Numbered from the stretch's first letter, positions 1 through 1,224 are shown. The stretch is DNA of 1,821 nt from Escherichia coli (GCF_003334315.1 NZ_QOWR01000112.1), one strand, 5' to 3'. The notes: generated from the sequence alone by a model not told the origin. A program made the numbers and translations.

Positions 1-75
1 GGTCGTTAGCTCAGTTGGTAGAGCAGTTGACTTTTAATCAATTGGTCGCAGGTTCGAATCCTGCACGACCCACCA
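1..75 (+). tRNA. lysV: tRNA-Lys (anticodon UUU), missing its first nucleotide at the window edge; ends in encoded CCA at 73-75
   Basis: Sequence matches the E. coli tRNA-Lys(UUU) from nucleotide 2 onward as I recall it. Anticodon TTT is at 33-35 and the T-arm GCAGG-TTCGAAT-CCTGC at 48-64. The lysV assignment (rather than a lysT-operon copy) rests only on the convergent xapR-like gene downstream, i.e. synteny inference. Confidence 0.93.
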
Positions 76-118
76 ATGTAAAAAAGCGCCCTAAAGGCGC
101 TTTTTTGCTATCTGCGAT
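58..118 (+). repeat. Direct repeat copy 1 (61 bp): tRNA-Lys 3' end (T-loop to CCA) plus terminator hairpin and trailer
   Basis: 58-118 is identical over 61 bp to 214-274 (ATCCTGCACGACCCACCAATGTAAAAAAGCGCCCTAAAGGCGCTTTTTTGCTATCTGCGAT), compared by eye. Copy 1 is the genuine tRNA 3' end. Confidence 0.9.
80..106. terminator. Rho-independent terminator for the tRNA transcript; symmetric, so potentially bidirectional
   Basis: A-tract 80-85, stem GCGCC 86-90, loop CTAAA 91-95, stem GGCGC 96-100, T-tract 101-106. It starts 5 nt after the tRNA CCA. Confidence 0.8.
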
Positions 119-213
119 ACTCAAAGATTCGAACCTGCAGCAGGTTTGAGTTGAGCGCAGCGAAACAACGGAGCCGCTCGCGGCGACGGCCCGAAGGGCG
201 AGCGAAGCGAGTC

Positions 214-274
214 ATCCTGCACGACCCACCAATGTAAAAAAGCGCCCTAAAGGCGCTTTTTTGCTATCTGCGAT
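214..274 (+). repeat. Direct repeat copy 2 (61 bp): orphan tRNA-Lys 3'-end fragment (18 nt, ATCCTGCACGACCCACCA) plus second copy of the terminator hairpin
   Basis: Identical to 58-118. Only the last 18 nt of the tRNA are present, so this is not a functional tRNA gene. The repeat period is 156 bp. Confidence 0.9.
236..262. terminator. Second copy of the bidirectional rho-independent terminator; likely also terminates the convergent xapR transcript
   Basis: Same A-tract / GCGCC / CTAAA / GGCGC / T-tract hairpin as 80-106. It lies 78 bp beyond the xapR stop codon (340-342) on the minus strand and is flanked by A/T runs on both sides. Confidence 0.7.
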
Positions 275-339
275 TTGCGAAATTGCCTGATGCGCTTCAC
301 TTAGCAGACTACTATTTCCGGCAATTCCTGTCTCCTCAC

Positions 340-1224
340 CTACTGTGTCAATGCAGCCAACAGCTTAACCATCGCGGGCGTCACCTGCTGTGTTTCATAA
401 ACAATATATAAATCTGCAGGGATGCGCTGTTTGAGCGGACGGAAAATGACACCTGGCCAGTTCATTTGTGCGTAGCTGTCCGCTATCAATGTGATACCAA
501 TGCCCATACTGACCATAGCGAGTACCGTTTGCGGTTCATTAACTTCGCGAATAACAACCGGTGAAAATCCCACCTGCTGGCAAACTCGCTGCAAAAAATC
601 CCAGTCAGTGTAAACGGGCGGCATTGTAACAAAATACTCGTCACGTAGCGCTTCCAGCGGGACGGTGGAAAATGATGAGAGATGATGCTCTTCAGGCATC
701 GCCACCAGAAACGCCGATTCATGCAACCGTAAGCTGGTAAAACCAGTCGGTGGTTCTGTCGCCATTCGCCAGATCCCGGCATCAAGTTCGCGGCGTTCCA
801 GCAAGGCCATTTGCATCGCGGGCATCTTTTCGCGAAAAAGAACGTCAACGTTAGGATTTTCCCTGAGGAATCGCCGCATAACCGGGCGCATCCGTCCCCA
901 CATTGCCGTTCCCACTACGCCGAGTTCAATCCGCCCTGCTTCTCCCCGACCTATTTGTTCAATCCGAGCCAATACATTATTAGCATTCACCAGCAATCGA
1001 CGCGATTCTTCCATCAAGATTTTGCCCGCGTGTGTCAGTACGACGCTGCGCGAATGGCGAATAAAAAGCTGCGTGCCGAGTTGATTTTCCAGCTCTTTAA
1101 TATGAATGCTGAGCGGAGGCTGAGACATATTTAAACGCGCTGCTGCGCGGCCAAAATGCAACTCTTCCGCTACGGCAAGAAAATAACGGAGCAACTTAAG
1201 ATCTGTTCTGTATACGCGTTCCAT
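340..1224 (-). CDS. xapR: LysR-family transcriptional regulator (294 aa), most likely the xanthosine operon regulator XapR
   Basis: The ORF-track frame is 340-1239 (299 aa). The N-terminal region (LKLLRYFLAVAEELHFGRAAARLNMSQPPLSIHIKELENQLGTQLF) is a typical LysR-type winged-HTH and the remainder a LysR substrate-binding domain. I place the start at the second ATG (1222-1224, MERVYRTDL...) because GGAG (complement of 1234-1237) sits 9 nt upstream of it, while the first ATG at 1237-1239 has no Shine-Dalgarno. The xapR call rests on recalled sequence and on position next to lysV; it was not verified by search. Confidence 0.8.
   Translation of the reverse strand: MERVYRTDLKLLRYFLAVAEELHFGRAAARLNMSQPPLSIHIKELENQLGTQLFIRHSRSVVLTHAGKILMEESRRLLVNANNVLARIEQIGRGEAGRIELGVVGTAMWGRMRPVMRRFLRENPNVDVLFREKMPAMQMALLERRELDAGIWRMATEPPTGFTSLRLHESAFLVAMPEEHHLSSFSTVPLEALRDEYFVTMPPVYTDWDFLQRVCQQVGFSPVVIREVNEPQTVLAMVSMGIGITLIADSYAQMNWPGVIFRPLKQRIPADLYIVYETQQVTPAMVKLLAALTQ

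Follow-up and report, generated by a model that had tools for sequence, protein, structure and literature searches.

tRNA-linked repeats (TLRs) have been known since 1978. The 178-bp repeats distal to tyrT and tyrV (RtT RNA, rttR) were reportedly described by Egan and Landy in 1978 and by Bosl and Kersten in 1991. They lie directly after the last tRNA gene of their operon and on the same strand, and their units end in the last 18-19 nt of their own tRNA. In Escherichia coli K-12, 22 TLRs are now catalogued at 10 loci; they repeat 18-19 nt from the 3' terminus of the preceding tRNA or 5S rRNA gene, and no function is known for any of them (PMC8144298). The phenotype originally reported for RtT has been retracted, and a strain from which all 22 TLRs are deleted has been built, with rlV listed in its genotype beside the lysV coordinates (PMC8144298). 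A mobilome preprint only restates the old stringent-response claim for RtT, and RtT has disappeared from the current version of the CoCoNuT preprint. The TLRs rrA, rrB and rrF of rrnA, rrnB and rrnD each lie between two terminators and end by repeating the last 18 nt of the gene upstream (Stenum et al. 2021); they are produced by readthrough of the first terminator, T1 (PMC8144298). Our literature search found no paper that treats lysV together with xapR, the two genes between which the repeat described here is located.

The window analyzed, by which we mean the whole stretch of 1,821 nt of E. coli DNA, opens within lysV. This gene for tRNA-Lys(UUU) occupies positions 1-75 on the + strand (nt 2-76 of the tRNA) and, according to the annotation of identical E. 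coli sequence, is the final gene of a Val-Val-Val-Lys operon. The Rfam tRNA model matches positions 1-72 with 71.1 bits and a cut 5' end; ARAGORN called no tRNA in the window because the first G of the gene falls just outside it. A repeat search of the whole window returned a single direct-repeat family, with copies at 58-118 and 214-274 that are identical at 61 of 61 nt, lie 156 nt apart from start to start and are separated by 95 nt (119-213). An exact 61-mer repeated within 1.8 kb cannot be attributed to chance. The description in the sequence-only reading, of a 61-bp tRNA-tail/terminator unit present twice with a 156-bp period, was thus correct to the base.

Both copies are read on the + strand. 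The first consists of nt 59-76 of tRNA-Lys, from the T loop to CCA, followed by the trailer, the terminator hairpin T1 and a further 10-12 nt. Its tRNA portion (ATCCTGCACGACCCACCA, 58-75) is the final 18 nt of the gene and recurs in full at 214-231, and identity between the copies runs on for 43 nt past CCA. The second copy correspondingly comprises a pseudo 3' end of tRNA-Lys (214-231), the trailer, a second hairpin T2 and 10 nt more. T1 (78-108) and T2 (234-264) are the same 13-bp hairpin, AAAAAAGCGCC/CTAAA/GGCGCTTTTTT, which folds with -19.1 kcal/mol in each position and is directly followed in each repeat copy by GCTATCTGCGAT. By sequence and fold, the locus contains two G+C-rich intrinsic terminators in tandem, each running into TTTTTT, and T1, with an A tract upstream of its stem and a T tract downstream, is bidirectional in form; T2 is likewise flanked by an A tract and a T tract. 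A scan for consensus terminators flagged neither hairpin, an artefact that arises because extension of the stems takes in the A and T tracts and leaves no free T run. On the far side of T2, and convergent with the tRNA operon, is xapR (340-1224, - strand; annotation of identical sequence and ORF list), the 3' end of which faces T2. K-12 MG1655 has the same arrangement at lysV, with the repeat identical at 60 of 61 nt: it has A (locus L009, position 961) against G at window position 107, just past T1.

The interval between the repeat copies contains further pieces of the tRNA. Positions 126-138 (+ strand) are an inverted copy of the T arm of tRNA-Lys, the reverse complement of 48-60 (13 of 13 nt complementary in the repeat search), and positions 140-149 (+ strand) read as a forward copy of tRNA-Lys nt 49-58, GCAGGTTTGA as compared with GCAGGTTCGA in the tRNA itself. 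The two pair as a hairpin in the minimum free energy fold. They are followed on the same strand by a conserved core of 64 nt (150-213) with the 3' end GAGTC, which is common to the tyrT units and to 136 distinct gammaproteobacterial copies. Within it, helix H2 is formed by 173-176 with 181-184 and has G-A/G-A at its flanks, H3 is GCCC-GAA-GGGC (189-199) and H4 is GC-GAA-GC (202-208). Set against the tRNA, the unit reads GCAGGTT(C/T)GA (49-58), then the 64-nt core, then the 18-nt tail (59-76), which places the core exactly at T-loop position 58/59.

The stretch 106-231 on the + strand matches the Rfam family RtT (RF00391) with 46.7 bits against a gathering threshold of 45 (cmscan, E 1.9e-7), a marginal pass. 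For comparison, units in Photorhabdus score 80-89 bits and those of the K-12 lysT operon 54-60 bits. NCBI annotation has an ncRNA feature, 'RtT sRNA', at these coordinates, between Val-Val-Val-Lys and xapR (loci L001, L002 and L006). The unit also has the features by which TLRs are recognized: it lies directly downstream of a tRNA gene on the same strand (1-75 and 106-231), its 3' end copies the last 18 nt of that gene, and the core helices H2, H3 and H4 are present at 173-208. Two observations count against the identity. The lysV unit does not form the outer stem of the Rfam model, as the mismatch marks in the alignment indicate, and the minimum free energy fold of the single sequence (z = -2.0) differs from the consensus helices of the family. 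The lysV-distal duplication is nevertheless an already known element, the catalogued tRNA-linked repeat with the EcoGene name rlV, of the RtT family. The sequence-only reading had noted a resemblance to the tyrT-distal repeats that carry the tRNA 3' end and had offered an integration scar as the alternative. The first of these stands, and as homology rather than mere likeness, given RF00391, the NCBI RtT label, the common core and the list of K-12 TLRs; the second does not.

Like the tyrT and tyrV repeats, with which it shares membership of RF00391, the lysV unit directly follows the last tRNA of its operon and ends in a copy of the 3' end of that tRNA. The core common to tyrT and lysV can be written as ...GAGCGC(C)AGCGA..-hairpin-CG(G/A)CCCGAAGGGCGA-hairpin-GAGT(A/C)ATCC and is preceded in both by an inverted copy of the T arm. 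The differences lie in scale and setting. The period is 156 nt at lysV compared with 178 at tyrT, and there is one unit compared with 3.14. Unlike its tyrT counterpart, the lysV repeat includes a complete intrinsic terminator, so that the unit sits behind a terminator, and it is without the outer stem that is made at tyrT by the complement of the acceptor 3' strand. In its position between two terminators, the lysV unit is like rrA, rrB and rrF, and the rrn TLRs have TTGAACG-hairpin-GGCCCGGAGGG in common with it. They are not detected by the Rfam RtT model. In the rrn operons, however, T1 and T2 are different hairpins and the upstream gene encodes 5S rRNA, and the rrn TLRs, unlike the lysV unit, have GGA motifs and bind Hfq and CsrA.

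A 28-aa Arg-rich ORF at 151-237 (+ strand; MSAAKQRSRSRRRPEGRAKRVILHDPPM) is the frame equivalent of the 'protamine-like' Tpr of the K-12 tyrT repeat (MRSFDQGSTRAPARERCRRQRPEGRSAQR). It was considered as a Tpr-like peptide and rejected, as it has a TTG start and shares with Tpr only the RPEGR that the core forces; the motif is common to both because both carry the conserved CCCGAAGGGCGA. The ORF is probably a by-product of G+C-rich hairpins.

The terminator-TLR-terminator module has a paralogue in K-12 at the end of the lysT operon, behind its final gene, lysQ. The lysQ-distal TLR is identical to window positions 1-267 in many strains and has the same terminator, in agreement with the reported identity of the lysV and lysQ terminators (PMC4176162). 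It differs from the lysV element in that its repeat is 54 nt long, since the lysQ flank diverges after GCTAT. The interior of the lysQ unit contains CTGCGAT, which is the native flank of lysV in empty alleles; because lysQ keeps this lysV flank, the comparison suggests that gene conversion carried a copy of the unit from lysV to lysQ. The K-12 lysT operon has, in addition, a short TLR in each of four spacers, those after lysT, lysW, lysY and lysZ, whereas in other genera the operon has short TLRs only. The short unit in the K-12 lysZ-lysQ spacer retains traces of the 5' part of tRNA-Lys (GGTGGTTA...CTGGTAGAG). It is absent from strain bR_120_Kylling, in which the spacer is 33 nt long (L010 1046-1144 in comparison with L005 1576-1608), and short TLRs, too, are therefore presence/absence polymorphisms.

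Copy number of the 156-bp unit at lysV varies across E. coli, as had been anticipated from the sequence: alleles with zero, one and two units are seen. At least one unit is present at lysV in 2,446 of 5,426 complete E. coli genomes (~45%), counted as those that cover at least 80% of window positions 1-340 in one place; no other allele can reach this coverage, so a genome that does so has at least one unit at lysV. When lysQ is included, 3,240 of the 5,426 genomes have a long Lys unit at one or other locus, and ~40% are without it altogether. Among 60 evenly spaced E. coli genomes, the unit was found at lysV in 26, only after lysQ in 10 and at neither locus in 24, the last group including BL21(DE3) and O157:H7. 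In sequence, the zero-unit allele differs from the window by lacking exactly one 156-bp period. The two-unit alleles are few. Their second unit differs at three positions, all within the T-arm hairpin, where it has the exact GCAGGTTCGA with the ancestral GGTTCGA; this variant second unit is found at ≥99% identity in 436 genomes.

Gain and loss of whole periods is the outcome expected from recombination or slippage between the 61-bp repeats. As the alleles show, the repeats are at the DNA level substrates for homologous recombination or slippage, by which whole 156-bp periods are removed or added. The arrangement itself extends beyond E. coli: Val-Val-Val-Lys followed by a long unit and the same terminator is found in Enterobacter, Citrobacter, Leclercia, Erwinia and one divergent Escherichia genome. 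This conservation across genera indicates that the lysV unit is old and that the empty alleles of E. coli are secondary losses. With more than half of E. coli genomes lacking it at lysV, the unit is dispensable.

The alternative put forward in the sequence-only reading was that the duplicated tRNA 3' end is an attL/attR scar, left by an integrase-borne element in the 3' end of lysV that has since been reduced to 95 bp. The T loop is the usual crossover zone of P4-type integrases, and the lysV duplication begins in the T loop. Its likeness to P4-type tRNA att sites extends to the tRNA 3' direct repeat and to the existence of occupied and empty alleles, and the variable xapRBA/FlxA-like region begins 3-4 nt past the second repeat. 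However, the repeat is not confined to a tRNA 3' recombination core, taking in nt 59-76 together with 43 nt that include the whole terminator, and the 95 nt between the copies hold no integrase fragment, the ORFs of the region being only 28-44 aa long and those of the interval 28-35 aa at most. A blastn search with 11-nt words found no match to 58-274 in 50,697 phage records, and a scan of viral contigs with the core pattern gave six matches, all of them host tRNA or TLR flanks within provirus predictions. The E. coli genomes sampled contained no island or other foreign DNA between the lysV repeats; tandem two-unit alleles do occur. The interior, moreover, is a TLR core that is found also after Tyr, Arg, Gln, Ser, Pro and Asp tRNAs and after lysQ, and the arrangement is conserved across genera. 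In all, the lysV unit departs from P4-type att sites in having no integrase, a mere 95 nt between its repeats, a terminator within them, multi-unit tandems and the same interior at many tRNAs. With no integrase remnant, no phage match and the same core after other tRNAs that supply their own 3' ends, the scar as stated is largely refuted; we reject it as highly improbable.

The second alternative, which we regard as unlikely, though less so than the scar, is that readthrough of T1 yields a functional small RNA or cis element from the unit, as has been proposed for rrA, rrB and rrF between the rrn T1 and T2. It draws on the conservation and covariation of the core helices, with R-scape support (PMC8250186), on the fact that several genera have kept the unit at the valU operon, and on the expression of the rrn TLRs and their binding to Hfq and CsrA in vitro (PMC8144298). 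The transcription of the operon speaks against it. In K-12, Northern analysis and RNA circularization revealed a full-length valU operon transcript of ~438 nt that ends mainly at the first hairpin, T1; the terminator is taken off by RNase P, which cleaves 2-3 nt downstream of CCA (PMC4176162). With termination at T1, the TLR and T2 can be reached only by readthrough, and with that termination efficient, RNA from the unit may be very rare. On the favored reading of the locus as a TLR, polymerases that pass T1 would transcribe the unit and stop at T2, and the same enzymes could trim the unit, the CCA-AUG context of which is that of the tRNA. T2 would also terminate convergent transcription of xapR, and an effect of two tandem bidirectional terminators between the tRNA and xapR is plausible from the sequence. 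Further points against a small RNA are that TLRs of tRNA operons scored <0.01 as CsrA binders and that the original RtT phenotype was withdrawn (PMC8144298), and that ~55% of E. coli genomes have no unit at lysV, and ~40% no long Lys unit at all. Absence on this scale, with the construction of a strain deleted for all 22 TLRs, means that any function is weak, conditional or absent. Taken as a whole, the locus is very probably best explained as a known TLR/RtT unit lying between the identical terminators T1 and T2, of which whole periods are lost and gained by recombination or slippage and which the cell can do without.

Beyond lysV, the pattern CCCGAAGGGCGA-N6-20-GAGTMATCC was searched for over 100,044 species genomes and gave at least 120 stretches; among the matches listed, almost all are from Gammaproteobacteria or unclassified proteobacterial metagenome-assembled genomes (MAGs). 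Six tRNA isotypes are followed by TLR cores, and every one of these TLRs ends in the 3' sequence of the tRNA to which it belongs, in many cases with identity that reaches into the trailer. An inverted cognate T arm is present in the TLRs of Tyr, Ser, Pro, Gln and Arg tRNAs; from one isotype to another, both T-arm pieces, inverted and direct, covary with their cognate tRNA. Over the 136 distinct copies of the core, covariation is extensive, with 67 different stems for H2 and 35 for H4, and the loops are mostly GNA triloops. Such triloops are very stable in single-stranded DNA.

The most complete units are those of Photorhabdus. In P. caribbeanensis, cpoB and two intact tRNA-Lys genes are followed by a tandem array of 14 units, whose period is 174-175 (L016 5425-7866). 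These are complete copies of tRNA-Lys with a core of ~64 nt between GGTTCGA and ATCC, that is, at T-loop 58/59; they keep the anticodon TTT and have an intact acceptor stem only in some cases. Interrupted tRNA-Lys copies of this type occur at other loci (L053, L095, L096 and L123-L125), and in a member of the Rhodanobacteraceae a copy of tRNA-Tyr is interrupted by the core in the same manner (L049). We found no description of T-loop-interrupted tRNA arrays in Photorhabdus in the literature.

A further class of core copies is not linked to tRNA genes. Its members are dispersed, several to a genome, in Xanthomonadaceae, Rhodanobacteraceae (including the isolate Tahibacter soli), Thiogranum, Thiohalobacter and other gammaproteobacterial MAGs (L046-L050, L055, L060-L066, L076, L080, L090-L093, L105, L109-L112, L117, L127 and L128). 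Here the core lies within a REP/dRS3-like hairpin, ...ATTCCCGC-GAAG-GCGGGA, core, ATCCAG, or in general form cgtcATTCCCGCgaagGCGGGA, core, ATCCag. A structural regular expression applied to the fetched loci found nine empty and 14 filled REP-like hairpins near one another. Exact empty-site searches for the non-tRNA copies gave no match because the hairpin loops vary. The pattern by which the class was found has H3 and the 3' junction as fixed parts, and the link of the class to the TLRs rests on that pattern and the common architecture: a non-tRNA copy scores only 19.6 bits with the Rfam RtT model, and the copies of this class fall short of the gathering threshold. The strict upstream motif AGCGRRMC does not carry over to the non-tRNA copies, and the looser RGCGAR is enriched in both classes. 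One tRNA-Pro TLR (L131) has the core subtype typical of non-tRNA copies, and the rrnB TLR aligns with the short non-tRNA subtype.

Two other occurrences of the core were observed. Aggregatibacter sRNA 22 (RF02902) has the consensus GAACG-hairpin-GGCCC..AAGGGGCGAG-hairpin-GAGUA and scores a sub-threshold 18 bits on the core (L110 8424-8526); this family may represent the module in Pasteurellaceae. In one of the six viral-contig matches, an IMG/VR provirus call that contains a Citrobacter-like valU operon (L136 10241-11054), the TLR ends in ...GAGTCATCC and is followed by phage DNA with genes for a Hin/Gin-type invertase, tail fiber and baseplate. The pseudo tRNA 3' end is absent, and the prophage end thus adjoins the TLR exactly at the core/ATCC junction.

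These distributions bear on how TLRs arose. One possibility, compatible with the explanation of the lysV locus favored above and held tentatively, at rather less than even confidence, is that the 64-nt core (150-213) is a copy of a small, highly structured insertion module, widespread in Gammaproteobacteria, that goes into the 3' side of a hairpin with GA before and ATCC after it, and that TLRs are tRNA copies interrupted in the T loop and decayed from the 5' end. The units known today may then be stages of such decay, with whole tRNA copies still present in Photorhabdus and only the T arm and 3' end left in E. coli. The proposal draws on the occurrence of the core in several contexts, namely the T loop of tRNA copies, REP-like hairpins and the neighborhood of the 5S rRNA 3' end, and in particular on the 14 tRNA-Lys copies of Photorhabdus and the tRNA-Tyr copy of the Rhodanobacteraceae that carry it in the T loop. 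Empty and filled hairpins in the same loci are consistent with it, as are the core subtypes shared by the tRNA-Pro and rrnB TLRs with non-tRNA copies, and the predominance of GNA triloops hints at action as single-stranded DNA. Against it, the GA/core/ATCC junctions have no target-site duplication, and there are no terminal inverted repeats and no associated transposase; a non-exhaustive search found no autonomous copy of the module. The hairpins with and without a core could represent a single repeat that exists in two forms, not sites before and after insertion, and the pattern-defined non-tRNA class, with its low RtT score, tempers the argument from these contexts. An insertion module by itself accounts neither for the inverted T-arm copy nor for the intact gene that is almost always upstream. 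No description of the TLR core as an insertion module was found in the searchable literature, and this origin hypothesis is the sole part of the present analysis that might be new.

The neighborhood of the unit is variable on its xapR side. In E. coli W and O157:H7, a FlxA-like gene stands beside yfeR in place of the xapRBA segment (L006 1775-1860; L007 1619-1700). The two versions part after ...GCTATCTGCGATTTG (window 277/278), so that the variable region begins at the end of the tRNA-terminator module, with zero or one TLR units alike. Further along, at 1369-1821 of the window, an IS1 end (GGTAATGACTCCAAC...) lies inside a small gene of the DUF1427 family (1265-1423 by comparison with L001), which in uninterrupted strains is located between xapR and xapB. 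The top-ranked complete E. coli genomes match across the IS1 junction in two pieces, not one, and in strain EC5 an IS1 is found elsewhere, between the DUF1427 gene and xapB.

The lysV duplication is accordingly to be annotated as the TLR/RtT unit rlV and not as an integration scar, and its presence or absence is a strain polymorphism that arises from recombination between its own flanks. This polymorphism bears on annotation, on the design of primers and recombineering constructs near lysV and xapR, and on the reading of 'RtT sRNA' calls. For the family as a whole, the finding that complete tRNA copies carry the TLR core at position 58/59, and that it also occurs at the 5S rRNA 3' end and in hairpins that are not tRNA-linked, provides a concrete and testable hypothesis of origin.
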